Assembly (NCBI GenBank): GCA_965113315.1
Contig: OZ220367.1
DNA: 64,000 bases
Origin: Podarcis vaucheri
Taxonomy: Eukaryota
Reading direction: 5' to 3' (one strand)
A program made the translations under genes and the position numbers. The notes beneath the pieces were generated by a model. The model was not told the origin of the DNA. It saw only the letters and a program-made list of their open reading frames with translations, and ran no database searches. Shown piece by piece: positions 10,122 through 61,944 of the stretch. Every line of letters starts with the position of its first letter. The stretch's first letter is position 1.

Positions 10122-11102
10122 TAGAATCATAGAATCATAGAGATGGAAGAGACCACAAGGGCCATCGAGTCCAACCCCCTGCCAAGCAGGAAACACCATC
10201 AGAGCACTCCTGACATATGGTTGTCAAGCCTCTGCATAAAAACCTCCAAAGAAGGAGACTCCACCACACTCCTTGGCAGCAAATTCCACTGTCAAACAGC
10301 TCTTACTGTCAGGAAGTTCTTCCTAATGTTTAGGTGGAATTTTCTTTCTTGTAGTTTGAATCCATTGCTCCGTGTCCGCTTCTCTGGAGCAGTAGAAAAC
10401 AACCTTTCTCCCTCCTCTATGTGACATCCTTTTATATATTTGAACATGGCTATCATATCACCCCTTAACCTCTTCTTCTCCAGGCTAAACATGCCCAGCT
10501 CCCTTAGCCGTTCCTCATAAGGCATCGTTTCCAGGCCTTTGACCATTTTGGTTGCCCTCCTCTGGACACGTTCCAGTTTGTCAGTGTCCTTCTTGAACTG
10601 TGGTGCCCAGAACTGGACACAGTACTCCAGGTGAGGTCTGACCAGAGCAGAATACAGTGGCACTATTACTTCCCTTGATCTAGATGCTATACTCCTATTG
10701 ATGCAGCCCAGAATTGCATTGGCTTTTTTAGCTGCCGCGTCACACTGTTGACTCATGTCAAGTTTGTGGTCAACCAAGACTCCTAGATCCTTTTCACAGG
10801 TACTGCTCTCAAGCCAGGTGTCACCCATCTTGTATTTGTGCCTCTCATTTTTTTTGCCCAAGTGCAATACTTTACATTTCTCCCTGTTAAAATTCATCTT
10901 GTTTGTTTTGGCCCAGTTCTCTAATCTGTCAAGGTTGTTTTGAAGTGTGATCCTGTCCTCTGGGGTGTTAGCCACCCCTCCCAGTTTGGTGTCATCTGCA
11001 AATTTGATCAGGATGCCCTTGAGTCCATCATCCAAGTCGTTGATAAAGATGTTGAATAAGACCGGGCCCAAGACAGAACCCTGTGGCACCCCACTAGTCA
11101 CT
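10122..11102 (-). mobile_element. CR1 LINE, 5'-truncated (C-terminal RT and 3' UTR)
   Basis: Uninterrupted ORF 10292-11101 with [20 protein letters not shown] and KFADD motifs; (ATTCTATG)n tail at 10122-10140. Confidence 0.95.
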
Positions 11103-11573: not shown

Positions 11574-11711
11574 CTCACTGTGGGAAACTGCACACTTGCT
11601 CATTCTCACCAGTGAAACATGCCAATGATAGGATTGCATCACAATGCTGGTGCAAAGGTGCCAGTCATATCCTGTAGCAGCACTGGATTCCTTAAGCTTG
11701 ATCCTATATAC

Positions 11712-11844
11712 CAGACATCCCCAAACTCAGCCCTCCAGCTGTTTTTGGACTACAACTCCCATCATCCCTAGCTAACAGGACCAGTGGTCAAGGATGGGAA
11801 TTGTAGTCCCAAAACAGCTGGAGGGCCAAGTTTGGGGATGCCTG
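11712..11844. mobile_element. hAT (Charlie-like) palindromic MITE
   Basis: CAGACATCCCCAAACT / AGTTTGGGGATGCCTG termini; perfect 8-bp TSD CTATATAC. Confidence 0.88.
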
Positions 11845-12524
11845 CTATATACTCTTACAGTGGAGTACACAGAGGATAGGATGTAGTGGTGTTTTAAGTT
11901 ACCTTCAATAAAGCTGAGAATGACACTGAAGATGACTTATTCAGCCACATGTAAACATTCCTAGCCACTGCGCATCCTGCAACATGAATGAGACTCTGCA
12001 AAGATACAACCAGCAGTGGCCAACAACTTCCTACAGCTGCTAACTTTATGAGAAAGCTTAATTAAATAAATGTGGCACTCTTCTGGGCATTTCCCCCCCC
12101 CCTCCCATGTTCACAACCTTTTTAATATCTAAATAATGTGCAAAATGTAGAAGTTTTTGTCTTAATTTTGTTGACAATATAAACTTAAAATAGCTCTGCT
12201 TTATTTAAGGTCAGAGAGAATTCTTGATTATTTCCTACTGAGGGCTTCAGTTTTCAGATTTATATTTTATTAGTAATGATAGGTTTTTAAAAGCTATCAC
12301 ATGTTCATCACACAGCAGCACTGAGCTATATTGTCCCCCAAATAAGTTCTTTCTGTAACCACAGTTCATCCCTTCACAGCAGTAGGGAATTGGGGTGACA
12401 TGGAAGGTTGCAATCCGATGCACACTTACCTGGAATTAAATCCCTAGAAGTAAGTAACTCAATGGGGCTTACATTCATTCTGAGTAGACACTGTTCAGCT
12501 TAACTTTCATGGTGTCAACTAAAG

Positions 12525-13147: not shown

Positions 13148-13224
13148 CTGAGTCCAGAGCATGTACTCAAAGTTACTGCAGACTCGGCATAATCTTGGAC
13201 ATGACCATGGTAGTAGCAATGAGC
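13148..13224 (-). CDS. ADAM12: ADAM12 coding exon (exon 5 equivalent, 77 bp): AHCYYHGHVQDYAESAVTLSTCSGL(R)
   Basis: ttctctgttcaattag| ... |gtaagtg. ADAM prodomain motif HCYYHG...LSTCSGLRG; human GHCYYHGHVRGYSDSAVSLSTCSGLR. Phase 0/2. Confidence 0.96.
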
Positions 13225-15772: not shown

Positions 15773-17201
15773 TAAGCCTGGTAGATGAAGGGAACGCAGT
15801 GGATGTAGCCTACCTTGATTTCAGCAAGGCATTCCACAAGGTGCCCCATGATATTATTGTAAAGAAGCTGGTAAAATGTGGTCTTGACTATGCTACCACT
15901 CAGTGGATTTGTAACTGGCTGACTGACCGAACCCAAAGGGTGCTCATCAATGGTTCCTCTTCATCCTGGAGAAGAGTGACTAGTGGGGTGCCGCAGGGTC
16001 TGTCTTGGGCCCGGTCTTATTCAACATCTTTATCAACGACTTGGATGATGGACTCAAGGGCATCCTGATCAATTTTGCAGATGACACCAAACTGGGAGGG
16101 GTGGCTAACACCCCAGAGGACAGGATCACACTTCAAAACGACCTTGACAGATTAGAGAACTGGGCCAAAACAAACAAGATGACCTTTAGCAGGGAGAAAT
16201 GTATTGCACTAGGGCAAAAAAAATGAGAGGCACAAATACAAGATGGGTGACACCTGGCTTGAGAGCAGTACATGTGAAAAGGATCTAGGAGTCTTGGTTG
16301 ACCACAAACTTGACATGAGCCAACAGTGTGACGTGGCAGCTAAAAAAGCCAATGCCATTCTGGGCTGCATCAATAGGAGTATAGCATCTAGATCAAGGGA
16401 AGTAATAGTGCCACTGTATTCTGCTCTGGTCAGACCTCACCTGGAGTATTGTGTCCAGTTCTGGGCACCACAGTTCAAGAAGGACACTGACAAACTGGAA
16501 CGTGTCCAGAGGAGGGCAACCAAAATGGTCAAAGACCTGGAAACGATGCCTTATGAGGAACGGCTAAGGGAGCTGGGCATGTTTAGCCTGGAGAAGAGGA
16601 GGTTAAGGGGTGATATGATAGCCATGTTCAAATATATAAAAGGATGTCACATAGAGGAAGAAGAAGAAGAGTTTGGATTTGATATCCCGCCTTTCACTCC
16701 CCTTCAGGAGTCTCAAAGCGGCTAACAATCTCCTTTCCCTTCCTCCCCCACAACAAACACTCTGTGAGGTGAGTGGGGCTGAGAGACTTCAAAGAAGTGT
16801 GACTGGCCCAAGGTCACCCAGCAGCTGCATGTGGAGGAGCGGAGACGCGAACCCGGTTACCCAGATTACGTGACTACCGCTCTTAACCACTACACCACAC
16901 TAGAGGAGGGAGAAAGGTTGTTTTCTGCTGCTCCAGAGAAGCGGACACGGAGCAATGGATCCAAACTACAAGAAAGAAGATTCCACCTAAACATTAGGAA
17001 GAACTTCCTGACAGTAAGAGCTGTTCGACAGTGGAATTTGCTGCCAAGGAGTGTGGTGGAGTCTCCTCCTTTGGAGGTCTTTAAGCAGAGGTTTGACAAC
17101 CATATGTCAGGAGTGCTCTGATGGTGTTTCCTGCTTGGCAAGGGGTTGGACTCGATGGCCCTTGTGGTCTATTCCAACTCTATGATTCTATGATTCTATG
17201 A
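15773..17201 (+). mobile_element. CR1 LINE, 5'-truncated, frameshifted and interrupted by a SINE
   Basis: ORF pieces 15760-16068 (YLDFSKAF), 16005-16226 (FADD), 16243-16725 and 16831-17121; (ATTCTATG)n tail. Nearly identical to 10122-11102. Confidence 0.95.
16659..16900 (-). mobile_element. Squam3-type SINE (tRNA head, L2-like tail, (CTT)n end) inserted in CR1
   Basis: Minus strand gtgtggtgtagtggttaagagcggtag...gatatcaaatccaaactcttcttc; 7-bp TSD TAGAGGA (16652-16658, 16901-16907). Confidence 0.85.
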
Positions 17202-17245
17202 AGTCATATTCAGCCAGAGCAGACCCATTGGAATCAAAATATATA

Positions 17246-17927
17246 CAGTTGTACCTCGCAAGACGAACACCTCGCAAGACGGAAAACCCGCTAGACGAAA
17301 GGGTTTTCCGTTTTGGAGGCGCTTCGCAAGATGAATTTCCCTATGGGCTTGCTTCGCAAGACGACAGCCCATAGGGAAATATCCGGGACAGCGGGGAAGC
17401 GCAGCGCGTCTTCCCCACTGTCCTCGGACCGCCTCCGAAGCCGGGCGGCGGGGCGGGAACACCTGCCCCCACCGCCGGGCTTCGGAACGCTGCTCCGAAG
17501 CCGGGCGGCGGGGCGGGAACACCTTCTGAAGGCGGGCGGGGGGCGAAAGTCTTTGTCCCCCCGCCTGCCTTCCCAGGGGCTTTTAAATCGCCCCGGACAG
17601 CGGAGAAGTCCTCCGCTGTCCGGGGCGATTTTAAAATGCCGCCCCGCCAGCATTTTAACATCGCCCGGACAGCGGAGAAGTCCTCCGCTGTCCCGGGGTT
17701 TTTTAAAATGCTGGGGGTGGGAAGAAAAGCCCTTGTCCCCCCCCCCAGCCTTCAGAAGAGGTCCAGGGACAGACTGTCCCCGGACCTGGTCTGAAGGCGG
17801 TTTCCCTAGGAACGCATTAATTGATTTTCAATGCATTCCTATGGGAAACCGTGCATCGCAAGACGAAAAACTCGCAAGACGAAGAGACTTGCGGAACGAA
17901 TTAATTTCGTCTTGCGAGGCACCACTG
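17246..17927. mobile_element. GC/CpG-rich non-autonomous Tc1/mariner (Tigger-like) transposon
   Basis: TA|CAGTTGTACCTCGCAAGACGAA ... TTCGTCTTGCGAGGCACCACTG|TA; repeated CTCGCAAGACG motifs; internal hairpins and direct repeats. Confidence 0.88.
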
Positions 17928-17982
17928 TAAGCCTGTTTACTTAAATGGGGATATTTAGAGTATGACTAAAGTTGGATAGTAA

Positions 17983-18343
17983 GGGACGCGGGTGGCGCTG
18001 TGGGTTAAACCACAGAGCCTAGGACTTGCCGATCAGAAGGTCGGCGGTTTGAATCCCCGTGACGGGGTGAGCTCCCGTTGCTCGGTCCCTGCTCCTGCCA
18101 ACCTAGCACTTCGAAAGCACATCAAAGTGCAAGTAGATAAATAGGTACCTCTCCGGTGGGAAGGTAAATGGCGTTTCTGTGCGCTGCTCTGGTTCGCCAG
18201 AAGTGGCTTAGTCATGCTGGCCACATGACCCGGAAGCTGTCTGCGGACAAACGCCGGCTCCCTTGGCCTATAGAGCGAGATGAGCGCCGCAACCCCAGAG
18301 TTGGTCACGACTGGACCTAATGGTCAGGGGTCCCTTTACCTTT
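17983..18343 (+). mobile_element. Sauria SINE, full length
   Basis: GGGACGCGGGTGGCGCTGTGGGTTAAACC start and CCTTTACCTTT end; 14-bp TSD actaaagttggata (17965-17978, 18344-18357) with 4 extra nt at the 5' end. Confidence 0.92.
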
Positions 18344-18625
18344 ACTAAAGTTGGATATCACCTTGTGGATATATAATTTATGTTAAAGGTTTTTATAAAC
18401 TGCCCAACTTATAAAATATTAAGGCAATGTAGAGAAAACAAAAAAATAAATCTAAAATACACACCAGAGTAAAACTGTTAAAATAACAGCACAACACTAG
18501 AAAATAATCAGAGCACAGCAATTAAAAAATTCATTTAGCATGCATGTGAAAGAGCAGATTGTATGAGCATGCCTTATCTTAGCTGGTGATGGATTCCACA
18601 TGAGAGGAGACTTATCTATCTATCT

Positions 18626-18665
<40 letters not shown>

Positions 18666-18746
18666 CTTTCGTAGATTTTCACGGGTACAGGAATGCAGGT
18701 TTTGGTGTCTTCGGGTGTCTTCCCGTGTAAGAGTCGGGGTGTCTGT

Positions 18747-18784
18747 GCGACGTTTCGACGAGGTCTCACTCGTCATCTTCAGGC
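18747..18784 (-). ncRNA. Minimal type I hammerhead ribozyme-like motif (copy A)
   Basis: gc-CUGAAGA-u-GACGAG(ugagac)CUCGUC-GAAAC-GUC-gc on the minus strand. Confidence 0.65.
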
Positions 18785-18863
18785 TGGTGCTTTCGGCTTC
18801 TTGTTACTGGAACAACACCACACCCCTCTGCTCTGTTCCAGTAACAAGAAGCCGAAAGCACCA

Positions 18864-18901
18864 GCCTGAAGATGACGAGTGAGACCTCGTCGAAACGTCG
18901 C
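18864..18901 (+). ncRNA. Minimal type I hammerhead ribozyme-like motif (copy B)
   Basis: CTGAAGA 18866-18872; 6-bp helix II 18874-18879/18886-18891; GAAA 18892-18895; GUC triplet ending 18899. Confidence 0.65.
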
Positions 18902-18950
18902 ACAGACACCCCGACTCTTACACGGGAAGACACCCGAAGACACCAAAACC

Positions 18951-19009
<59 letters not shown>

Positions 19010-19089
19010 TTTCGTAGATTTTCACGGGTACAGGAATGCAGGTTTTGGTGTCTTCGGGTGTCTTCCCGTGTAAGAGTCGGGGTGTCTGG

Positions 19090-19127
19090 GCGACGTTTCG
19101 ACGAGGTCTCACTCGTCATCTTCAGGC
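19090..19127 (-). ncRNA. Minimal type I hammerhead ribozyme-like motif (copy C)
   Basis: Same core as copy A, minus strand. Confidence 0.65.
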
Positions 19128-19383
19128 TGGTGCTTTCGGGTGGGTCATTAGCAACTAATCTACACTTAATGACCCACCCAGTGGTATTCAGAATATCACT
19201 CATGAAATCACTCAAGATATCCCTCAAGTAATTAATGAACAAAAGAAGAAAAGGCACACTAATCTAGGAACTTCCTCTCTGCCCAAAACGTTGGAGGCTA
19301 TACACCACACCCCTCAACAGTATTTATAGGAACTCAAACACCAGATTCTGCTCTGTTCCAGTAACAAGAAGCCGAAAGCACCA

Positions 19384-19421
19384 GCCTGAAGATGACGAGT
19401 GAGACCTCGTCGAAACGTCGC
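19384..19421 (+). ncRNA. Minimal type I hammerhead ribozyme-like motif (copy D)
   Basis: Same core as copy B; CTGAAGA at 19386-19392. Confidence 0.65.
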
Positions 19422-19470
19422 CCAGACACCCCGACTCTTACACGGGAAGACACCCGAAGACACCAAAACC

Positions 19471-19527
<57 letters not shown>

Positions 19528-20298
19528 GTTATGTTTTTAAAATTATAAACCAGAGGCTTAAACTCAGTCCCCTTTAAGTGTCCATCTTCTCTCTGACAAG
19601 AGAAGACAGGAGGTACAGTGAACACTAGAATTCAGGGAGAAGACACGATGATCTGAAGGGAAACAGGGTGGTATTAAACATTCCCCAGTAAAACCTATAT
19701 TTATGGTGTCATTAGTTTTGCACCAAGCTAGAGCACATTTATGACTGTCAAAAAACTGAGAGCTAATATTAAAACATACATGTATAATTTCTACTGTCAG
19801 AGATGCTAAATCAAGGAATCAAGCCATGTAAATTGTTCTTGCCAAAATAAGCCATTCCTCATTTTTGGCATTGATCATGATGAAGTAAGGGATAGATCAA
19901 TTAGACATCTTTGTTGATATCTCAATAGTAGTGTCTGACTCACGACCCCCCACATGTATTTTTATTATTTATTTATTTTTGTATATTTGGGGATCTAGAA
20001 AATGAACAGCAATGATATAGCTTTTCCTTAATTCAGTGATCCAAGACCTTAAGTTGGGTGGTGATAGTGCCATGCTAATTCCCACTGGTCGAAACAGCAC
20101 AGTGGAGGAATTAGCATGGTGTGCACAAGGGAATAATTTACACATCATCCACTCCACATATGCCATCCAAATATGTTTACTAACATGTTCAGTACTTGTA
20201 TGTTTTGCTCTACTGGATAAAGAGCAGTTTGGGGGATTAATTTTATTCAGGAAAACAGTGGGGGGAGGGAAGAGTTATCCCTTCTGCATGCACTGAGG

Positions 20299-20434
20299 CA
20301 GGCTTCCTTAAACTCGGCCCTCCAGATGTTTTGAGCCTACAACTCCCATGATCCCTAGCTAGCAGAACCAGTGGTCAGGGTTGATGGGAATTGTAGTCTC
20401 AAAACATCTGGAGGGCCGAGTTTGAGGAAGCTTG
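20299..20434. mobile_element. hAT palindromic MITE
   Basis: Long inverted arms; perfect 8-bp TSD CACTGAGG (20291-20298, 20435-20442). Confidence 0.88.
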
Positions 20435-21215
20435 CACTGAGGTCTCCTGATTGGGGCACCGAAGGGTGTTTAAGCTATTTTGAAAACCTGTAAGATATAT
20501 GATAATGGATTTCTCATCATCTTATCTACTTTCTAGGTGAAAACCGTGCCTCACAAAAATCAGAATTAAAATCAAAAGTCAGCAGTATAGAACACTCTGG
20601 ATGAAGCTTTACTTAGCAACACTTCCTTAATTCTGAGATTTTGCCATTTTGCAGAGGTAAAAATATCTAAAATTAGTAGCAGCTCACTTTCACTATTTGA
20701 AACTAGCAGTGAATATTTCACAAACTGTGGTGACAACATGTTTTATTTGCAGGAAAACGTATTTTTACAATAAATATATGTGTAAGCATTAAAATGTTGG
20801 GAGTGCAAGATGCATTGCATTTTGGTATCAAAAAGGGTTCTACTGCAATATTTAAAAAACTGTTTTAACTGGTTAGTCTACCAGGGTATAAATTGCTGCT
20901 TCAATTGTTCACCTTAACGACTAATTAAAAAAAAAAGCTTTAAAAAACCTTACGGCTCCAATCTAAGACAAGAGGCGTCATGAACCTCCATTTACTACTG
21001 TCTTATTAAGGAACTTAAGAAGATGTGTAATGCTTCTACTTCTACATCAAACATATACATTTTTAAAATGCAGTTAAGCTGGATCTAATCAGCAGATAAA
21101 AGTAAAATGTAGTAATCCAGACCAGCCACTGTACTGTTTTAATTAAGAAGGATCTTCATTTGAGTCAGCAGTGTGATGCAGCAACAACAACAAAAGCTAA
21201 GGCTATTCTAGAGTT

Positions 21216-23393
21216 TCTTCAGCACAGTCAGCAAAAACAAGACCTGGAGCTGACTGTGGCTCAGATCATCAGCTCCTTATAGCAAAATTCAAGCTTAAAC
21301 TGAAGAAAGTAGGAAAAACCACTGGACAGGTAAGATACAATCTAAACCAAATCCCTTATGAATACACAGTGGAAGTGAGGAACAGGTTTAAGGATTTAGA
21401 TTTGCTGGACAGAGTGCCTGAAGAACTATGGATGGAGGCTCGCAACATTATACAGGAGGCAGCAACTAAAACCATCCCAATGAAAAAGAAATGCAAGAAA
21501 GCAAAGTGGCTGTCCAACGAGGCCTTACAAATAGCGGAGGAGAGAAGGCAAGCAAAATGCGAGGGAGATAGTGAAAGATACAGGAAATTGAATGCAGATT
21601 TCCAAAGAACAGCAAGGAGAGACAAGAAGGCCTTCTTAAACGAGCAATGCAAAGAAATAGAGGAAAGCAACAGAATGGGAAGAACCAGAGATCTGTTCAA
21701 GAAAATTGGAAATATGAAAGGAACATTTCGTACAAAGATTACCATAATAAAGGACAAAAGTGGTAAAGATCTAACTGAAGCAGAAGACATCAAGAAGAGG
21801 TGGCAAGAATACACAGAGGAATTATACCAGAAAGATATGGATGTCTCGTACACCCCAGGTAGTGTGGTTGCTGACCTTGAGCCAGACATCCTGGAGAGTG
21901 AAGTCAAATGGGCCTTAGAAAGCACTGCAAATAACAAGGCCAGTGGAAGTGATGGTATTCCAGCTGAACTGTTTAAAATTTTAAAAGATGATGCTGTTAA
22001 GGTGCTACACTCAATATGCCAGCAAGTTTGGAAAACTCAGCAGTGGCCAGAGGATTGGAGAAGATCAGTCTACATTCCAATCCCAAAGAAAGGCAGTGCC
22101 AAAGAATGCTCCAACTACCGCACAATTTCACTCATTTCACATGCTAGCAAGGTTATGCTTAAAATTCTACAAGGAAGGCTCAAGCAGTATGTGGACCGAG
22201 AACTCCCAGAAGTGCAAGCTGGATTTAGAAGAGGCAGAGGAACCAGAGACCAAATTGCAAACATGCGCTGGATTATGGAGAAAGCCAGAGAGTTCCAGAA
22301 AGACATCTACTTCTGCTTCATTGACTATGCAAAAGCCTTTGACTGTGTTGACCACAGCAAACTATGGCAAGTTCTTAAAGAAATGGGAGTGCCTGATCAC
22401 CTCATCTGTCTCCTGCGAAATCTCTATGTGGGACAAGAAGCTACAGTTAGAACTGGATATGGAACAACTGATTGGTTCCAAATTGGGAAAGGAGTACGGC
22501 AAGGCTGTATATTGTCTCCCTGCTTATTTAACTTATATGCAGAATTCATCATGCGAAAGGCTGGGCTGGATGAATCCCAAGCCGGAATTAAGATTGCCGG
22601 AAGAAATATCAACAACCTCAGATATGCAGATGACACAACCTTGATGGCAGAAAGTGAAGAGGAATTAAAGAACCTTTTAATGAGGGTGAAAGAGGAGAGC
22701 GCAAAATATGGTCTGAAGCTCAACATCAAAAAAACGAAGATCATGGCCACTGGGCCCATCACCTCCTGGCAAATAGATGGGGAAGAAATGGAGGCAGTGA
22801 GAGATTTTACTTTCTTGGGCTCCATGATCACTGCAGATGGTGACAGCAGTTACGAAATTAAAAGACGCCTGCTCCTTGGGAGAAAGGCGATGGCAAACCT
22901 AGACAACATCTTAAAAAGCAGAGACATCACCTTGCCAACAAAGGTCCGTATAGTAAAAGCCATGGTTTTCCCAGTAGTGATGTATGGAAGTGAGAGCTGG
23001 ACCATAAAGAAGGCTGATCGCCGAAGAATTGATGCTTTTGAATTATGGTGCTGGAGGAGACTCTTGAGAGTCCCATGGACTGCAAGAAGATCAAACCTCT
23101 CCATTCTGAAGGAAATCAGCCCTGAGTGCTCACTGGAAGGACAGATCGTGAAGCTGAGGCTCCAATACTTTGGCCACCTCATGAGAAGAGAGGACTCCCT
23201 GGAAAAGACCCTGATGTTGGGAAAGATGGAGGGCACAAGGAGAAGGGGACGACAGAGAATGAGATGGTTGGATGGTGTTCTTGAAGCTACTAGCATGAGT
23301 TTGATCAAACTGCGGGAGGCAGTGGAGGACAGAAGTGCCTGGCGTGCTCTGGTCCATGGGGTCACGAAGAGTCGGACACGACTAAACGACTAA
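21216..23393 (+). CDS. BovB ORF, partial: end of APE endonuclease plus complete reverse transcriptase domain
   Basis: Frame open from 21216 (SSAQSAKTRPGADCGSDHQLL) through the listed 674-aa ORF; motifs FIDYAKAFD, GVRQGCILSP, LRYADD; no stops or frameshifts. Confidence 0.9.
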   Translation, partial: SSAQSAKTRPGADCGSDHQLLIAKFKLKLKKVGKTTGQVRYNLNQIPYEYTVEVRNRFKDLDLLDRVPEELWMEARNIIQEAATKTIPMKKKCKKAKWLSNEALQIAEERRQAKCEGDSERYRKLNADFQRTARRDKKAFLNEQCKEIEESNRMGRTRDLFKKIGNMKGTFRTKITIIKDKSGKDLTEAEDIKKRWQEYTEELYQKDMDVSYTPGSVVADLEPDILESEVKWALESTANNKASGSDGIPAELFKILKDDAVKVLHSICQQVWKTQQWPEDWRRSVYIPIPKKGSAKECSNYRTISLISHASKVMLKILQGRLKQYVDRELPEVQAGFRRGRGTRDQIANMRWIMEKAREFQKDIYFCFIDYAKAFDCVDHSKLWQVLKEMGVPDHLICLLRNLYVGQEATVRTGYGTTDWFQIGKGVRQGCILSPCLFNLYAEFIMRKAGLDESQAGIKIAGRNINNLRYADDTTLMAESEEELKNLLMRVKEESAKYGLKLNIKKTKIMATGPITSWQIDGEEMEAVRDFTFLGSMITADGDSSYEIKRRLLLGRKAMANLDNILKSRDITLPTKVRIVKAMVFPVVMYGSESWTIKKADRRRIDAFELWCWRRLLRVPWTARRSNLSILKEISPECSLEGQIVKLRLQYFGHLMRREDSLEKTLMLGKMEGTRRRGRQRMRWLDGVLEATSMSLIKLREAVEDRSAWRALVHGVTKSRTRLND

Positions 23394-25307: not shown

Positions 25308-25386
25308 CGTGTAATTACGCGCAAGAACAGCACCAGTACCATCTTCCAAATAGTGTGTTTCTGTGAAGTTGCCAGCAAAAAGGTCA
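25308..25386 (-). CDS. ADAM12: ADAM12 coding exon (exon 4 equivalent, 79 bp): DLFAGNFTETHYLEDGTGAVLARNYT
   Basis: ttctcttccag| ... |gtaagt. Matches human GLIASSFTETHYLQDGTDVSLARNYT. Phase 2/0. Confidence 0.95.
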
Positions 25387-28368: not shown

Positions 28369-28398
<30 letters not shown>

Positions 28399-28565
28399 TT
28401 ATTATTTATACCCCGCCCATCTGGCTGGGCCTCCCCAGCCACTCTGGGCGGCTTCCATAAAAACCAAAAATACAATAAAATATCACACGTTAAAAACTTC
28501 CCTGAACAGGGCTGCCTTAAGATGTCTCCTGAATGTCAGGTACTTGTTTATCGCCTTGACATCTG
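28369..28565 (-). mobile_element. L2-type LINE 3' end with (AAT)n tail
   Basis: tttataccccgcccatctggctgggcctccccagccactctgggcggctt; same family as 31058-31215 and 44942-45400. Confidence 0.7.
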
Positions 28566-28639
28566 CTGGCACTCTGGTGTTTCATTGACCTAGGTTTCAG
28601 AGAGCAGATTGGTTTTAAAAAGCAATGGATAAAAAGATA

Positions 28640-28864
28640 CAGGGGTACCTTGGTTTACAAACTTAATCCGTTTCGGAAGTCCATTCTTAAACGGAAGCCA
28701 TTCTTAAACAGAAGCACGCTTTCCCTAATGAGGCCTCAAATCCATTCAGATTCCGTTCTTAGACTGAGGTAAAGTTTGCAAACTGGGACACTACTTCCGG
28801 TTTCGCGGAGTTCGTAAACCGAATTGTTCGTAAACAGGGCTGTTCTTAAACCGAGGTACCACTG
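28640..28864. mobile_element. Tigger-like MITE (subfamily 2)
   Basis: TA|CAGGGGTACCTTGGTTT ... AAACCGAGGTACCACTG|TA. Confidence 0.85.
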
Positions 28865-30799
28865 TACTATAGAGTTGCAAAAATCAAATGAATCTTTTGT
28901 GTAAGTAGAAATATTTTGTTTTGTTTACTTAAACAGAACTTAAGATTCTACTGCAAGAATCCTCCTTTTCCCCTTCCTCCTCTAAATGTGATGTACTGTA
29001 TTTTACTCTTCGGTCTTGTTCTATGTTTTTTGATAGCGCTCTGACAGCTAAATGAAAAGGTGAGTCCTGAACACCATAGCCTCCAGGGTAGACACTTCTC
29101 TTTTTTTGGTAGAAGCAGCAGTTATCTCCTCTTTCGAAAATGACTTTAAAAGCTGCCCAGTGGAATAAACACTTAGTGCTGGTACAAGGAGATTTACAAG
29201 TCATGTGTGGGCACTTCTCTGAAGGGTTATCAACAGTAAGTACAACAAGCACTCAAGTTCAGCAAGAAGGAAAGGTGTGTGCAGAGGTCGCATCATGCAT
29301 GGCACTCATGCTTAACGATCAAACACCACATTTGACACATGTATCCATTAGATAATTTGTCTCCCTTTGGAAAGAGATGTAATTTACAGAATTGATTTAC
29401 ATTTTTTTCCTGCACCCCTCTGGTAAAGGAAAGGCGATAAATAAAGGAAAGTAAACCAATTTAGATGGTAATCTTATTAACATAATTGAATGGATGCAAC
29501 TAAGAAAAGACATGGGTTAAAACAACATTAATTCATCATACTTCGGGATCTACCATATGTTTTGTCACCACACAGGAAAAACAGCACATCCCTTTGTACA
29601 GCTTGCTATGGGTTCCAGAAGATAAGTGATAACTTTGAATGCTGGGACAAGGTTTTCTCAGCTGTAGCCTCCCTGTTATTGAATAAATTCCTCTGAAGCC
29701 CAAATTAGTAAAAATAAAATAAAAGTTTTCCTCTTTTGTCAGGCTTTCAAGGATGTACTCTAGTTTAGGACTAAACTAGATTATACAGTAAACATGTGGT
29801 TTAATTTACCATATCTAGTGCTTTTCCATTTAAACTTCTTTGCCTGTTTTCCATTCTTTCCATATCTCTCCAAAATTTCCCTGTGTTCCATCTTTAACAA
29901 ATTCTTCTCTGGGATAAGCTTAAAAATAATTTCCATAAGAGAATTCCACCATAAGCACTATATGAAACGAAACTCTCTCTGTATTTATGATACTTGTAGA
30001 TAGAAAACTGAACACAGGAAAGATTTATTGGAAAAGGGCTAATAGGTCTGGGTTACTCCTACTAGTCCAAAGAAATCAGACTCTCTCTCACACACACATG
30101 CGCTTCCAAGAGAACAAATGATACTGACTGTGAATATCAGTTCTATAGATTTAGTGGAAGGTATATTTCAGCACTTGGCAATGGCTGCTTCTTTTATAAG
30201 GCATGTGCAGGTATGCACATTTTGAAGGATGGTTGTGTTTCCATTTGTGTATGGAAAGTGGAAATTTGGTGGATTCGTGTTTAAACGTGACCTGAACTGA
30301 TTTTCTTCCCCAACCCTAGCCAACTCTACCTCCCCACTCTTTCTTCGTGGAGGCAAAATGTACCCCATGGTAACCTATGACCAGGGCTGATATGAAATTC
30401 TTTCTGACCTAATGGAATCCTTTCCAGGCAAGCTGTCCAAATTCACACCCACACCGGGGCTTCTATCAGAAAAAGGACACCAGGTGTATCTCACCTAGTC
30501 GACCTCATGCCACTTAGAAATGACTGTCATTAAGCAATATCTTTACCCCAAGAGTCCTCCCAGCTGCTACACCAAGACTCCCAATGAGACTTTAAAAAAA
30601 TGTTAATCTACGTTAAGTTCATCCCTTCTTCCACCCCCAAACCAACTAGCTGCATTCCATAGAGCACATGCAACTGCTGTTATGTGCTCCATATGTGGCG
30701 CTACCTGCAGCTAATGCAAAATGCAGTTGTTAGGGTGCTTCGTGGGACACACGCCCTGTAGAACACTGTCCCATCAGATGTCAAGGAAATAAACAACTA

Positions 30800-31057
30800 C
30801 AGTGATACCTCGGGTTACATATGCTTCAGGTTACATACGCTTCAGGTTACATACGCTTCAGGTTACAGACTCCGCTAACCCAGAAATATTACCTCGGGTT
30901 AAGAACTTTGCTTCAGGATGAAAACAGAAATCGTGCTCTGGCGGCGCAGCAGCAGCAGGAGGCCCCATTAGCTAAAGTGGCGTTTCAGGTTAAGAACAGT
31001 TTCAGCTTAAGAACAGACCTCCGGAACGAATTAAGTACTTAGCCTGAGGTACCACTG
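30800..31057. mobile_element. Tigger-like MITE (subfamily 1)
   Basis: TA|CAGTGATACCTCGGGTTA ... GAGGTACCACTG|TA; tandem ~19-bp gcttcaggttacatac units. Confidence 0.9.
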
Positions 31058-31215
31058 TACCTGACTTTTAGAAGACATCTGAAGGCAGCCCTGTTTGGCA
31101 AAGTTTTTAATGACTGACGTTTTAATGTATTTTTAATATTTTGTTGGAAGCTGCCCAGAGTGGCTGGGGAAACCCAGTCAGATGGGTGGGGTATAAATAA
31201 TAAATTATTATTCTT
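31058..31215 (+). mobile_element. L2-type LINE 3' end
   Basis: gaagctgcccagagtggctggggaaacccagtcagatgggtggggtataaataataa. Confidence 0.7.
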
Positions 31216-32287
31216 GTTATTACTACTACACATATTATACCAGAAATAAAATATCTGCACTGGCTAGTTACCATGTCATGTTCAACATTTTGCTGTTGAC
31301 ATTTAAAGCAGCAAATAACTTGGGACCAGAAGTCAAGATCTTCAGAGGAGATCCTGCTGGTCATTCCATGACCAGTGGCTTGTCACCTGGTGGCAGCAGA
31401 GAAGTCAGCCTTTTCAGTGAAAGCACCCACCCTCTGGAATGCCCCTCTCAAATCTGTGCGGCAGAGACAGTAATGACCTTTAAACACTTCTTACAAAGTT
31501 AGATGCTTTGAGAAAATTATAATTTGGTTTGGTTGCTCTTTCTTTTTGTATTTGTCTTCCTGTCTGTTCTTTGACACTGACATTATTTTCTTGCTCTCTA
31601 CCTAAACTACAAAAAAAAAGGAAAAGACTCTGGATCTACATAATTTGTACTCATTATTGCTTGGTGAGGCAAGCAAGATAGATAATATTTTCAAAATGTA
31701 TTGAAACCGCTGTTTATATTATAATCGCCTGCTTATGCTGTAGCATCTCCACTTAGGTCATCTTGACCTTTGTAATGGAGGTGGCTGTTCTTTATTCCGT
31801 TCCTAGCCCTCTTGATTATTATATGTATTCACAGGAATAAACAGGTCTATTAGACATGCTGCTGCTTGCAATAGTTGGCTCACTATGAATATCTGTGGAT
31901 AGTTAGCAACAGCCTTTTCCAACTCTTGTTTCTCATTACAATATGAAGAACGAAGGAAGCATGTTAATGAGTTCCCCATGCACCTGCTTTGAACATCACC
32001 CCACTCATACAATTATTGCATCTTCTTTAAACACATTATATTCTTTCCTTCTGTTTAATTATCTAAAGTGATTCAAAATGCTTTTGGACATTTTCCCATT
32101 CAGTGTCTGCATTTTATAATATTCCTATCTGTAACCCTCCAGTAGGCTTTCATGGAGTAAATACAGTGCTGTAAATATTATTATTTTTTTAAACCCTGAG
32201 ATATTAGGGTGTGCTCTCCTAGGTAGGAAAATGACTGTGGAAAAGGGGAAGGAGAAAAGTAAGGCCAATCCCTCCTAGGACACCTGA

Positions 32288-41495: not shown

Positions 41496-41636
41496 CATAG
41501 AATTTTATAGTTATAAAGGACCATGAGGGTCATCTAGTTCAACCCCCTGCAATGCAAGTATCTTTTTGCCCAACACAGGGCTCAAACCCATGACCCTGAG
41601 ATTAAAAACATCATGCTTTACTGACCAAGCTATCAG
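41496..41636 (-). mobile_element. tRNA-Lys-headed SINE with CR1-derived tail
   Basis: Minus strand gatagcttggtcagtaaagcatga...ttaatctcagggtcatgggtttgagccctgtgttgggcaaaaa...cattgcagggggttgaactagatgaccct. Confidence 0.75.
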
Positions 41637-42408
41637 GGCTACTCATGAACAGCCTTTTGTGTGAAATATATGAAAAACTCATGGAAGCAAAACTTTTGAC
41701 TCTGAAAACTGAATGGGAGGCCTTACTGGGGTCAAGAGTGCTGCTGAATTGCCCCAGGTCATTTCCCTCTCCTAGAAATATAGGACCAACATCTTATTTG
41801 TTGGGTGCTATTCCGAACTGGGGGAAAAAATAGTAAGATAGACTATCAGGAACTGCAAGATTTTCACATGTGAACACAGCAGAGCACAATGGAGAGAATA
41901 TATTTAGTCCTTCAGTCCTCAAAAGCTATCAACACAACCAGGAAGCAGTAGCTAAATGGGGTTTCCTTCTGGCCATAAAGCTGCAAAGGAGTAAAGAGGA
42001 CCAGCTAAAGACAGATGCGTTCCAAGTACTCTGGCATGCGTTCCCTGACTCAGCATCTAACTGAACCAACTTCTTAGCTAGTTAAGTCCTCATGCTCCAA
42101 TGCTGTCTGAATAATAGTTAAAGATACCACAAACATTTACTAAAGATCTGTTAAAAACACACTTCAGAGGCAAGTGACATGGTGATGGAGGTGGCAAGGG
42201 AAGGGATCTAGCTAAAGTCAAAGGCAATGAGAAAAGCCAGCTTTTGAGGGGTAAAGCATCTGATCAAGTGTAGCATGGAGCAGCCTGCTAGTGTGATTCT
42301 GAGCAGCTAAACAAATTAGGGCATTCAGTTATAAGTAAGCCATATAAATAAAAGTCATCCTGAATCTGAACAGGGCTTTTCACAGATGTCCAAGATCAAA
42401 CATAAGTA

Positions 42409-55200: not shown

Positions 55201-55214
55201 CGTGTGAGTGACTT

Positions 55215-55325
55215 GTCTATGGTGAGATCAACAAACTCCAGATGATCTCAGAAGCTAAGCAGGGTCAGGCCTGGTTAGTACTTGGATGGGAGACTGCCTG
55301 AGAATATCGGGTCTCACAAGGCTTA
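55215..55325 (+). pseudogene. 5S rRNA-derived sequence (pseudogene or SINE head)
   Basis: gtctatgg...tgatctcagaagctaagcagggtcaggcctggttagtacttggatgggagactgcctgagaatatcgggt...aggctt follows vertebrate 5S rRNA with CpG decay; 5' third diverged. Confidence 0.85.
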
Positions 55326-57085: not shown

Positions 57086-57222
57086 GTAGAGATGGAAGAT
57101 ACCTCAAGGATCATTCTAGCCCAACCCCCTGCAATGTAAGAATCCGGCCCACAGCTGCCCCGGGTGGGCTCGAACCACCAACATTCTGGTTAACAGCCAG
57201 ACACACTGATGCATTGCACCAC
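57086..57222 (-). mobile_element. tRNA-Asn-headed SINE with CR1-derived tail
   Basis: Minus strand gtggtgcaat...tggctgttaaccagaatgttggtggttcgagcccacccgggg matches tRNA-Asn(GTT); then attcttacattgcagggggttgggctaga. Confidence 0.75.
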
Positions 57223-58542
57223 AATAAATTCATTGGCCATTTAGACTTTTACATTTGGAGTGCTAAAGGGCATCACTTCAGTTCCTATTATACGACTGAA
57301 ATACCCTATTGCAAAATGGCATTACAACAATAATGTAAAAAAACAACAACAGATGAATGAACACAATGCTTTATGCTGTGGCCACCTGTATAACAAGTCA
57401 CACAAATGTTGAATTTAAAATCCCTGATAATGAAGTTCACATGTTTATCAAGGAGCCACCAGTAAGACAGTAGCTGTTACACAACACCAAAAATTTAAGT
57501 AGTGTCACAGGATAGCGCTGCAAAGCGTATATTCAAAATGTAACAGAATTCCGGGGGGTTTTTTCCTGTGCAAAATATATTGGCTAGCTACCTTTCACAA
57601 AGTGTAGGGGTGGGAGGCTGAGTTGGCCTGGACAGGTTAGGGGTGGCGGCACACATGTGACATCATGCACATACGATGTGTGTCCCCCGTCCCCCCATGT
57701 TGGGGGCAACTCGATGCATCTGCTTTGCGATCAGAGAGAGCAAAGTTCACTGAAATACACTAAGGACTAAAAACAAGACTGGATGACATGGCTTGCTTGT
57801 TAAAGAGGAATGTGTTGTTTTGTATCTTGTAATGTTTATTTGTTTTAAGACTCTTCTGCAGTAAAGCTTTGGAACTCATTTTTGTGGTGGCGAGCAAATT
57901 CATTTCTACTCTGCACAAGGTCTGGATCAAGGATTCCGTTGCAGCAACTCTAACGTGCAGGACCACCAGAAGGCATACAAGTCTTTTTGATATAGAAAAG
58001 AATGCATAGGTGGGAGCTGCTGAAGTTCCCTTCATTACAGGCATATGTTTAAGGTGGGTTCTTAGTGGAAAGGCAGCATGTGTGGAGGGCAGGCTTATCT
58101 CTTCATTCCCCCACCGTGATAGGATGGAGGACTACCTGTTCGCATGAACAGTCAGAAAAGAACTCAACCTCCCCTCCCTGCACACTGTCTTCCCAGTAAT
58201 ATTCATCCTGCTTGTCTGTAATTAAGGGGAAACAAAATATATGGCTGCCTGCTACGTATTAAGCAAATGTCTGGTTTGGCCCACACTTGCAAAGGTAAAG
58301 GTAAAGGTAAAGGTAGGGACAGGGCAGGCAGCAGAGACTGGCAGATTCTACCAGAAGGAGTGTAGCTGATACCAAATGACTACAAATTCAAATGTGTGCA
58401 GAAAGTAAAAATAATATTGCTGAATCTAAAATCCCAATGTTTGCCTCTATTTTGACAAAAAAGAATCCGGATGCCTAAATATTCAGTGACCTTTCTCGTT
58501 CTACTTGAGATCTTTGGAAGATAAAGTTGGTATATAAATGTA

Positions 58543-59083: not shown

Positions 59084-59840
59084 TGTCAGAGCTGCTTCCA
59101 GATCCTAGCTCACAGAGGATCACGCTAGCCAGCGTTCACTTTATAAAAGTCTTTATTGAGTTACAGTTTCCATTTCCAAGCTGCAGCGTGCAGCCCTACG
59201 TCTTAGAAGCTAGACCGGCGAAGCTCCGTCTGAGTCCCCGCCTCCTGTACACCAACTTAATACCCTAGCCTTACTCCACCTTTTCCGCCTGACCGTTCTT
59301 CTCTGGGTCCCTCTGCCCCCCGTGGTCTCTTCCTTCCTGGACTCTTCTGACGCTGACCCCCCGGACCCTTCTGTCTCTTTGTGGCGGGCTTTAGGACCTG
59401 GCTCCCTTTCCGGGCTGCTTACTGCGCCACCTTCCTGTGCATTTGAACTTGGCGCGCGCGCCCAACCTTCCACTTTCCGCTTGACCGTTTCTTCGCTCCC
59501 CGATGGAGGTGTGGCCACTCCTGACTCATACCCTCCCCCCTGCGGCGAGCCGCCGGATCTCGATACCTGGCGCCCTTCCTCTCCACTGCGCTCTGTTGGG
59601 GACGCTGGCCCCGATTTCCAACTGCTGCTCTCTGAACCCCCTCTGGTCCCTTCTTCCTGGGGTGTCCCCCTAGGCTCCCCCCTTGCTCTGGCCACTGGCG
59701 CTCCTTTCTGTGAATCTTCCGATTCACTGGAAAGACTCGGAGATCTCGGGTCGTCGTCATCACTCATCTTTTCTTCGGACTCCTCCCCCTCGCTCTCTGT
59801 TTCCTCCCTTGCCCTCGCCTCTGCTCCTGAACCCCTGACA
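59084..59840 (-). mobile_element. Solo LTR (757 bp, Ty3/gypsy-like) containing a long ORF
   Basis: TGTCAG...CTGACA termini; perfect 5-bp TSD CTACA; minus-strand AATAAA at 59152-59157; ORF 59210-59848. Confidence 0.85.
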
Positions 59841-61944
59841 CTACACAAGAATATAAGTCATTACAGGAAAAAATATACGGTTCTTGTAGTTCACTGGAAT
59901 GCAAAGCATAATCAATAATGATGAAGAATATTTGAACAACAAAATTATCCTCACTACTTTTCAGTGTACTATCAATGCCACCACGCTAATCATTTCCAAA
60001 AGATATGAAGTATTGGCAACTGTTAAAAGGAAAGCTGGTAGGAAAACTGTTTTAGTATATTTTAACACGCTGTCAGTTACAGTTAATCTTCATTCTGTAC
60101 TGGACTGATTTCTATACCTTCAGCTTAATGAGAACATGTTGTTGCTAAGACACTGCCACTCCATGTGATACATCACTCACTCACTGGTACAGAAGTTGAA
60201 TTCTGGGAGGAATTGCTGCTGTGTTTATACTTTAAAAGATATATAGAGTGGCAAGATCATCAATATATATGACCATCGATAACAATATAATGCTCAAGTA
60301 AAGGTGGGAGAAATTTCTCTGAATTTGTTGTGATAGATCGGGAAAGTGCCTGTGATGCCTATGCCATTGTTCCCCCTCACATCTTTTTCAACCGTTTCTG
60401 CATCATGATTTATATTTTATTATTCTGAGTAATTAATATGATTTAAGTCTGATTCCATTTCCAGGAAGAAACATTCATTTCCTGAAGAGTTCCCTTTGCT
60501 TTCAGACAATAAATGGGTTTAAGTCCAAGAAATTACTCATCTTTTTTACAGCAAGATATCCGAGAACTCATGCAGTCTACTCCTTATGATGGGTTCATGA
60601 CCCAATGTACTTCGCTAGATAGATGTGTGCAGGAACATTTGTTTTGCATGCATACACACACACCACTAAGATGTAGACCCCTTTTTGTTGTGTGGATTTA
60701 AAATTATATTACTGTTGAAATCATGAGGTGATATCCAAGAAGAAGAAGCCAATATTTTAAAATGTGCCAAGTAGGATATAAAACTTGTACTCAGTAAAAT
60801 CCAGATTACTAAAGGCTGCTTTCAATGTGCTGGTGATACAATTGTAGGCAATTCAGTGAAAGCAGGTTCCACAAGCTGGCAGGTTTCAGACTCACTTTCC
60901 CTATTCATAACAGATGAAATTATTCTTTGATTTGGCAAGTATGGATATGAGGCTCCCATAGATAGTATTAAACTTGATGATTTCTTCAAGCATTTTGCAA
61001 CTAACCTTAAGACAGGCGTTAAAAATGGATTGAATGGGGAAACCAATTATCTACAAAGGACATCATGTATTGTGAGAGAAAATTACTATTTTGGACCCAA
61101 CTACAGTGCAGATTCAGATATTTTGAAAGAATGTGCACAGTAATGAAATTAGTAAGAAAAAGGTTAAACAGAAGATATGCTGGTAATAAAAAACATTTGC
61201 CTTATCTCTAGCTAGCATTTATGCTGTTGCTTAGTTTACTCTCCCATATTTTAAGGATATTTTTTGTATTCCCTGAAGAATAGTTTATTTTCCTGAACAC
61301 AGCTGATAACTGTTTGACTGCCAGCATAATCTTTAAAAGATAAAATCTTTCTGCTCATGCTGTGCTCATGGACAGCAGAGTATATCCAAGTCTGCTTTTA
61401 CTTGGAACAAATTTTGTAGATGCATGTATAGTATTTCTTTCAAAGGTGCTGCACGATTTTCATAGGCGCAGTAGACATTTACTAATAGACTTTTTAAATA
61501 CAAGGCAAGGGATAACATTTAGCATAATGGCATAAACACTTGAATGACTCCTGATAGGTTGACCAAAATGGGAAAATAAACCTCATTAGACTACTACTGT
61601 TAAACCACAAGCATGTTTGATTTTTGTTTGGGGAGCTGATACTTCTGCACATCTCTCAAATTATAAGTTTGTTTTGTCTTACTAAACAGTATTATCTTGT
61701 CCTTGACAATGCACCCATACAATGGCCCCACCTTGTGTGAAGAGCCAATAGTATATGCTAAACTGGCCACCATGTGCTCTTGATGATCTTGTAGGCTGGT
61801 TTCAAGCTCCAGTGTTTTTAGTTATTGTTACTGTTCTATTTACATTTATTACCTGCCCTTCACTCTAAGGTCCTAGGGCAGGCTACAATCAGAACACCAC
61901 TGAAGTTAATACAGACAATCAAATAACTTAAAACAGCTTCCATA

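Follow-up and report, generated by a model that had tools for sequence, protein, structure and literature searches.

Organization of the cassette

The window analysed here, a stretch of 64 kb of DNA from Podarcis vaucheri, harbours a cassette at positions 18613-19525 that carries four hammerhead-ribozyme cores within four units (A to D), which we interpret as pLTR copies of a Penelope-like element (PLE). On the plus strand the order is microsatellite, A reversed, B forward, (TA)27, C reversed, D forward and microsatellite, with the following features.

18613-18662: left target microsatellite, (TCTA)n followed by (TA)17
18663-18814, minus strand: putative insertion 1, inverted pLTR copy A, tailed, merging into (TA)n; end at +114 from the ATG (18776)
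18749-18782, minus strand: hammerhead core A, with C3 at 18782 and C17 at 18749
18815-18955, plus strand: putative insertion 1, direct 5'-truncated copy B, tail-less; end at about +84
18866-18899, plus strand: hammerhead core B
18954-19007: central (TA)27, separating the two putative insertions
19008-19139, minus strand: putative insertion 2, inverted pLTR copy C, tailed; end at +112 from the ATG (19119)
19092-19125, minus strand: hammerhead core C
19138-19180: fold-back palindrome with 13-bp arms at the head-to-head C/D junction
19140-19470, plus strand: putative insertion 2, direct 5'-truncated copy D, tail-less; end at +79
19321-19328: TATA-like box in the pLTR of D, a pattern match only, the TATA consensus being matched on the minus strand
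19386-19419, plus strand: hammerhead core D
19471-19525: right target microsatellite, (TA)9 followed by (CA)18

Four overlapping inverted repeats result from this arrangement, with arms of 122 nt at 100% identity (A/B), 117 nt at 99% (A/D), 104 nt at 99% (B/C) and 99 nt at 100% (C/D). Copy D holds about 190 nt of upstream element sequence, which is followed by the pLTR without its tail. No further copies of the unit were found in the window outside 18613-19489, except for one 38-nt match (E 0.15). A tandem-repeat scan of 18600-19530 detected microsatellites only, the hammerhead units alternating in orientation; a non-LTR retrozyme was thus rejected as a candidate, given that these units form no head-to-tail tandem array.

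Host gene and neighbouring elements

The cassette lies in a minus-strand intron of 12 kb, delimited by two exon candidates with good splice sites.

25308-25386, minus strand: host exon candidate upstream of the cassette, 79 nt
13148-13224, minus strand: host exon candidate downstream of the cassette, 77 nt, with a weak Pep_M12B_propep match

Two further downstream exon candidates were located at 8036-7853 and, a short one, near 2593-2528. Of the four exon candidates, three were chosen by translation among the 15 listed by an exon scan, and the fourth was located by motif search. Pfam returned a weak reprolysin-propeptide match (E 0.79) for one of the three exons scanned, and searches of the host exons against the Atlas and PDB gave no match naming the host gene. 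To our reading, which we keep as an assumption, the exon candidates resemble the pro-domain and catalytic start of ADAM12, the 79-nt exon presumably belonging to an ADAM-family pro-domain. The host gene may thus be ADAM12, with the cassette in its intron 4, a name and an intron number that are plausible from the translated exons.

Further features were observed in the window. In the same intron and antisense to the host gene, 21201-23393 (plus strand) holds an uninterrupted frame of 730 codons with an RT domain (Pfam RVT_1, E 5.9e-41), which we take to be a young LINE of the RTE/BovB type. Two near-identical LINE 3' fragments, presumably CR1-like, occupy 10292-11101 (minus strand) and 16213-17121 (plus strand), the first with an RVT_1 match and the second with an apparent short insertion near 16700-16900. 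Directly left of the cassette, at about 17980-18345 (plus strand), there is a SINE-like sequence that we assume to resemble the Sauria SINEs of lizards, and degenerate 5S-like and tRNA-like matches just above the Rfam thresholds, at 55211-55322 (plus strand), 41567-41639 (minus strand) and 57161-57223 (minus strand), are probably SINE heads. Inverted-repeat elements are present at 11705-11851, 20298-20435, 17224-17949 and 28374-31228; the first two, short hairpins whose arms measure 59 nt, are related to each other and probably represent MITEs. Finally, 59210-59918 (minus strand) is GC-rich and contains overlapping low-complexity frames of 215 and 234 codons, with no Pfam match for the 215-codon frame.

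Hammerhead cores

An earlier note on this DNA had described four minimal type I hammerhead motifs, two per strand, and these proved to be real: four 34-nt cores were found, all of them identical. The cleavage coordinates that it proposed (18899 and 19419 on the plus strand, 18749 and 19092 on the minus strand) coincide with the C17 positions of the cores, and its A-to-C spacing of 343 nt was confirmed, that from B to D being 520 nt. A degenerate core pattern matched the 64 kb at four sites, whereas 100 dinucleotide shuffles each gave zero matches; the four cores are copies of one sequence and hence do not count as independent evidence. With a looser helix-II scan, six matches were obtained, namely the four cores and two sites without the GAAAC-GUC end.

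Each core comprises a CUGAAGA box, an extra U after A9, a 6-bp helix II that opens with G10.1-C11.1, and GAAAC-GUC. As the note had stated, helix I has 2 bp, with a pair probability of 0.005-0.009 in isolated units, and folding allowed no helix I extension adjoining the core, even when forced. The absence of a stable helix III was likewise upheld, as helix III is represented by the palindrome ACGU only. Minimal PLE motifs are described as having an extra base between 9 and 10.1, the pair G10.1-C11.1 and a palindromic 15.2-16.2, with a helix I of 4-5 bp in most of them and a 2-bp variant in D. virilis (PMC4209133). All four copies display the conserved core, the extra base 9/10.1, G10.1-C11.1 and the palindromic 15.2-16.2 of the minimal type I found in PLEs, and have a helix I of 2 bp instead of 4-5 bp.

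The hammerhead-model scan that the note had advised as a check on the motifs did not call them. At the gathering threshold, Rfam covariance models run over the whole window gave three matches, none of them a hammerhead, and at E<=10 none of the 49 matches in 18500-19700 was a hammerhead. As Rfam recognised none of the motifs, we call them hammerheads from their core and from what has been published on the minimal motifs of PLEs; Rfam models would be expected to cover hammerheads lacking helix III poorly. A miRNA precursor was also considered and rejected, as the sub-threshold Rfam miRNA matches merely reflect the long hairpins.

Two pairs of copies with distinct tails and junctions

The four units were previously regarded as a single unit occurring four times between (TA)n tracts, a description that holds in part. 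The four cores are identical, but the units are unequal and point to two different insertions; similarly, all four element 3' ends abut (TA)n, but A and B, like C and D, have no (TA)n between them. When the 99 nt common to all copies were compared, no differences were seen within either pair (A=B and C=D), and the four cross-pair comparisons all showed one and the same single base difference, three nt after the cleavage site. Each pair consists of an inverted copy with a tail of 30-33 nt, joined head-to-head to a tail-less direct copy, so that an inverted 5'-truncated copy lies beside the 5' end in both insertions. Counted from the ATG in helix II, the 3' ends fall at +114 (A), +112 (C), +84 (B) and +79 (D), so that the tail measures 30 nt in A relative to B and 33 nt in C relative to D, both values being uncertain by 2-3 nt shared with the target. 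All four of these 3' ends adjoin the (TA)n target, and a target-site duplication is not discernible inside the microsatellite.

One study reports for PLE insertions an inverted 5'-truncated copy, a tail of 30-40 bp at one end and a bias for (TA)n, a microsatellite bias that hides target duplications (PMC8557442), and another describes a 31-bp tail as well as palindromes at head-to-head junctions (PMC3846280).

Could a single complex insertion, or a local duplication followed by a point change, have generated all four units? Identity among the units is 99-100%, all of them occur within 810 nt of a single microsatellite, and complex tandem and inverted insertions are known for PLEs. Nevertheless, the pairs differ in their 5' truncation point, in the type of junction, with a 13-bp fold-back palindrome at C/D, in the position of their 3' ends (+114/+84 vs +112/+79), in a deletion of 33 nt in B that removes sequence present in D, including the TATA-like box, and in the diagnostic base. 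Moreover, neither pair is contained in the other, given that the 5' extent of A exceeds that of C, and the 5' extent of D that of B. We consider this common origin improbable and infer two separate insertion events, a division that is drawn from one base and the junction differences.

Relationship to a PLE open reading frame

The link between the unit and a PLE, which the earlier note had made a condition of its reading, is supported by the ORF start located in helix II. An ATG inside this helix opens a frame of 37-38 codons, of which copy A encodes the first 38. A query of 40 codons from C matched the N-terminus of an unnamed protein of 189 aa (P0002; 67%, E 2.3e-4), and through P0002 (E 8.5e-64) we reached P0005, the hypothetical protein NXF25_010538 of Crotalus adamanteus, a gene model of 377 aa whose N-terminus shares 22 of 40 residues with the same query (pairwise E 4e-10). 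P0005 contains GFNF at the GxKF/Y position, a variant with K changed to N, as well as ADKG; GxKF/Y and DKG are named as motifs of PLE ORFs (PMC8557442). The pLTR hence appears to overlap the start of a PLE ORF, judging from a match that runs through a snake protein and not through the genome of the window itself.

Several searches define the reach of this link. P0005 gave no RT match in Pfam and no informative PDB match, and its model stops at residue 377; its single-sequence structure model (pLDDT 42) was unusable, it was placed with eukaryotic DUF8422 clusters in the Atlas, which is uninformative on function, and it showed no similarity to the RTE-type RT of the window. We presume that its last 30 residues correspond to the first RT motifs. 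Among 397 candidates for longer relatives of P0002 only P0005 was retained, and no full-length ORF was found. The ORF-start query yielded two candidates, one of them supported, and in the representative library it matched three proteins, among them P0004, which is likewise a truncated copy and continues into a microsatellite, and one of 1822 aa without an aligned stretch. Neither a GIY-YIG domain nor a full-length element or RT catalytic core of the PLE was seen in the window or among the protein matches; an ORF with RT and GIY-YIG, the target of the note's suggestion to retrieve a full-length element, did not emerge from these protein searches.

The upstream piece of D has a relative in another gene model. 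Among four candidates retrieved with its translation, one protein was supported, P0001, a mis-modelled TSNAX of Podarcis muralis (89% over 45 aa), a match that suggests a lacertid host; no Pfam family was found. Read in three frames, the approximately 190 nt follow the spurious C-terminus of this TSNAX model up to the hammerhead; by this match, a second genomic copy of the piece is located in the Podarcis muralis gene model, and residues 180-268 of P0001 derive from this PLE family, with the region of the hammerhead among them. This ending of the TSNAX model is probably either an annotation error or an exonised copy. It is probable, from the three frames read against P0001, that the upstream sequence of D represents an ORF C-terminus, and the mis-modelled gene suggests that an ORF stop may overlap the start of the next ORF in helix II.

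Following the P0001 reading along D (19140-19400, plus strand) requires three 1-nt frame changes, which may represent real decay or sequencing indels, unless the frame of P0001 is itself not native. These changes, along with the assembly errors that perfectly matching inverted arms are known to cause, would fit inverted repeats produced by the assembly or by fold-back during library preparation. Such an artefact has a negligible probability in our judgement, because the arms have the unequal ends typical of PLEs, with a tail on one side, and non-palindromic spacers, and one base differs between the pairs.

RNA folding and catalytic competence

Transcription of the minus (host-sense) strand yields, in order, anti-D, C, anti-B and A, and that of the plus strand anti-A, B, anti-C and D; on both strands, the antisense copy of a motif therefore always precedes the motif itself. 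Every core is fully base-paired with this antisense twin in the folded ensemble, and the probability of helix II is 2.5e-21 on both strands, a value also obtained for all 20 co-transcriptional prefixes examined, whose ends lie 0-100 nt beyond a core. Two hairpins are predicted, one of 121 bp and one of 97 bp plus 54 bp. All these figures, as well as the energies below, describe equilibrium nearest-neighbour secondary structure, that is, a model without Mg2+, tertiary contacts, proteins or kinetics.

The earlier note had proposed that two same-sense motifs (A+C or B+D) could form a double hammerhead within one molecule and so cleave the intron during transcription, and that the antisense copies could serve as a folding switch. 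Some properties of the motifs agree with this proposal: the cores are intact and identical, the ACGU palindrome permits a nested double-hammerhead fold without pseudoknots, and two bare motifs in trans form a dimer at -16.1 kcal/mol, only about 1 kcal/mol worse than two monomers (-17.2 kcal/mol). The published activity of minimal PLE motifs is low, with none for monomers and weak cleavage for dimers, as in dimeric constructs of a Schistosoma minimal motif (PMC4209133). Within its context, however, the forced double hammerhead costs +143 to +157 kcal/mol in 18600-19530 and +140 to +151 kcal/mol in the 18665-19470 construct that the note had outlined, and pairing of a core with its antisense twin yields -79 kcal/mol; the error of folding models is far smaller than a difference of 140 kcal/mol. 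The control that the note had devised, A+C with B deleted, does not free the dimer when folded, as D still captures one motif (+112 to +114 kcal/mol), and removal of both antisense copies reduces the cost to +12 to +15 kcal/mol, as calculated with no tertiary terms in the model. None of nine internal transcript starts left two motifs folded. Cleavage of the intron by such a dimer is, in consequence, highly improbable.

Regarding the switch, the competition by the antisense copies was confirmed insofar as the cores are sequestered by their twins, but no switch is supported. The best alternative, a nested pairing of A with D and B with C, lies +10.9 kcal/mol (minus strand) and +18.3 kcal/mol (plus strand) above the ground fold and also buries the cores; any switch would therefore operate between two off states. 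A regulatory switch was discarded as a candidate, since both the order in which the inverted repeats occur and their strength contradict it. The motifs are predicted to be catalytically silent in cis and locked in dsRNA, because each forms a duplex with an antisense twin that is transcribed first.

Transcripts starting inside D behave differently while short. Those beginning at 19355 (plus strand) or 19300 (minus strand) keep one helix II at 0.84-0.98, and the TATA-like box at 19321-19328 could provide a promoter from which such RNAs start, with one motif free to cleave in trans-dimers or together with the PLE protein. Bidirectional pLTR promoters have been proposed (PMC3846280), and in the Anolis work the motif of the PAc element cleaves only with the element's protein (PMC11167929). 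Set against this, the box is no more than a pattern match, helix I hardly forms, and helix II drops to 0.02-0.03 on the plus strand once transcripts extend past 19600; in full-length minus-strand transcripts it drops to 0.66 or 0.01, with A remaining buried. For the Anolis element itself, no cleavage-site reads were found in RNA-seq (PMC11167929). We regard a promoter in D that releases an active motif as quite improbable.

Proposed origin of the cassette

Taken together, the cassette very likely represents two independent, recent, 5'-truncated insertions of one squamate PLE family of the Penelope/Poseidon type into intronic (TA)n of an ADAM-family gene, where the assignment to Poseidon is suggested by positional likeness to PAc only. 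By extension from the biochemistry of Anolis PAc, the RT-endonuclease of the element would cut AT-rich DNA on both strands, and reverse transcription would be primed from both ends, using two internal start sites approximately 30 nt apart in the ORF start. Two start sites combined with two-sided priming would therefore give one cDNA ending with the tail and another without it, as fits the ends read in the cassette (+112/+114 and +79/+84, respectively), both of which point outward into (TA)n. The two short cDNAs may then have been joined head-to-head, once with a fold-back palindrome, a process consistent with the junctions present, and the event would have taken place twice, from templates that differ at one base.

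Under two such insertions, the hammerhead would be a passenger of the pLTR. In read-through transcripts, including the host pre-mRNA, each motif is computed to zip into a duplex of about 100-120 bp with its earlier-made antisense twin. The product at the RNA level would be long hairpins of dsRNA within the intron, which are most likely neutral for the host and lost along with the intron; they may be edited or diced.

Another reading would make the locus transcriptionally live, either because hairpins of the host pre-mRNA are edited or diced into small RNAs that silence the PLE family in trans, or because a promoter in the D pLTR produces short RNAs with one free hammerhead that cleaves with the PLE protein; we hold it to be unlikely, though conceivable. 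If it were so, the inverted insertion might, as an equally unlikely joint claim, lead the element to write its own silencer and lock its own ribozymes. The tail on the inverted copy, its absence from the direct one and the shared allele within each pair could further reflect, with the same low likelihood when joined to a live locus, two-sided priming by a dimeric RT from one template. In a superficial literature search on Penelope hairpin siRNAs, general reviews were the only results.

The implications of the preferred reading are small. The feature is real and PLE-derived but ordinary, and its anatomy corresponds to published PLE behaviour. Some vertebrate genomes contain thousands of minimal hammerheads within PLE pLTRs. 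The locus serves as a tidy teaching example, in which the ends of two young insertions agree with the RT start site determined for the Anolis element, and the concealment of the motifs in dsRNA by inverted insertion would offer a simple reason for their tolerance in an intron. Should the hairpins feed editing or small-RNA silencing in reptiles, they would add modestly to the knowledge of PLE control; cleavage of the full transcript against a prediction of 140 kcal/mol would be surprising if true, and is unlikely.

Comparison with known systems

A superficial literature search found no published account of this locus or PLE family, which constitutes weak evidence. One of the closest known systems is the PAc element (Poseidon_Ac) of Anolis carolinensis, compared here by its published description: its ATG and ORF lie at the start of stem II, the RT initiates at +111-118 as well as at another site that is one tail-length distant, and both strands of AT-rich DNA undergo cutting and extension (PMC11167929). 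The tailed ends of our cassette (+112 and +114) fall inside this range of +111-118 (PMC11167929). In contrast to PAc, the copies described here are remnants of 130-330 nt, inverted rather than tandem, and without coding capacity.

With respect to the protein, the N-terminal 40 residues of Crotalus adamanteus NXF25_010538 (P0005) are 55% identical to the ORF start of unit C; this 377-aa snake gene model stops short of the RT catalytic core, and no endonuclease is seen in it.

The hammerheads share with the minimal type I motifs of metazoan PLEs the full core, the extra base 9/10.1, G10.1-C11.1, the palindromic 15.2-16.2 and the lack of helix III, and differ from most of them by a helix I of 2 bp, as in D. 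virilis Penelope, instead of 4-5 bp, and a helix II of 6 instead of 7-8 bp (PMC4209133). The same study reported in 2014 pairs of motifs on opposite strands, 100-700 bp apart, in Schistosoma, and similar motifs in snakes and a turtle (PMC4209133). Non-LTR retrozymes are also short non-coding units with type I hammerheads, for which an origin from PLE pLTRs is proposed (bioRxiv 10.64898/2026.07.22.740005); unlike their head-to-tail arrays, the present units show inversion and differ in length, and they still carry the start of the PLE ORF and the tail.

In architecture, the cassette resembles the inverted-pLTR insertions of Adineta vaga and of EN+ PLEs, which likewise display an inverted 5'-truncated copy head-to-head with a direct copy, a one-sided tail of 30-40 nt, a pLTR that includes the first ORF codons, a TATA readable both ways and a junction palindrome, and whose target-site duplications can be hidden by the microsatellite (PMC3846280, PMC8557442). 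Unlike those insertions, two of them stand here side by side in one (TA)n, with four motifs and four overlapping inverted repeats. On the features tested, the cassette is a truncated EN+ PLE insertion.
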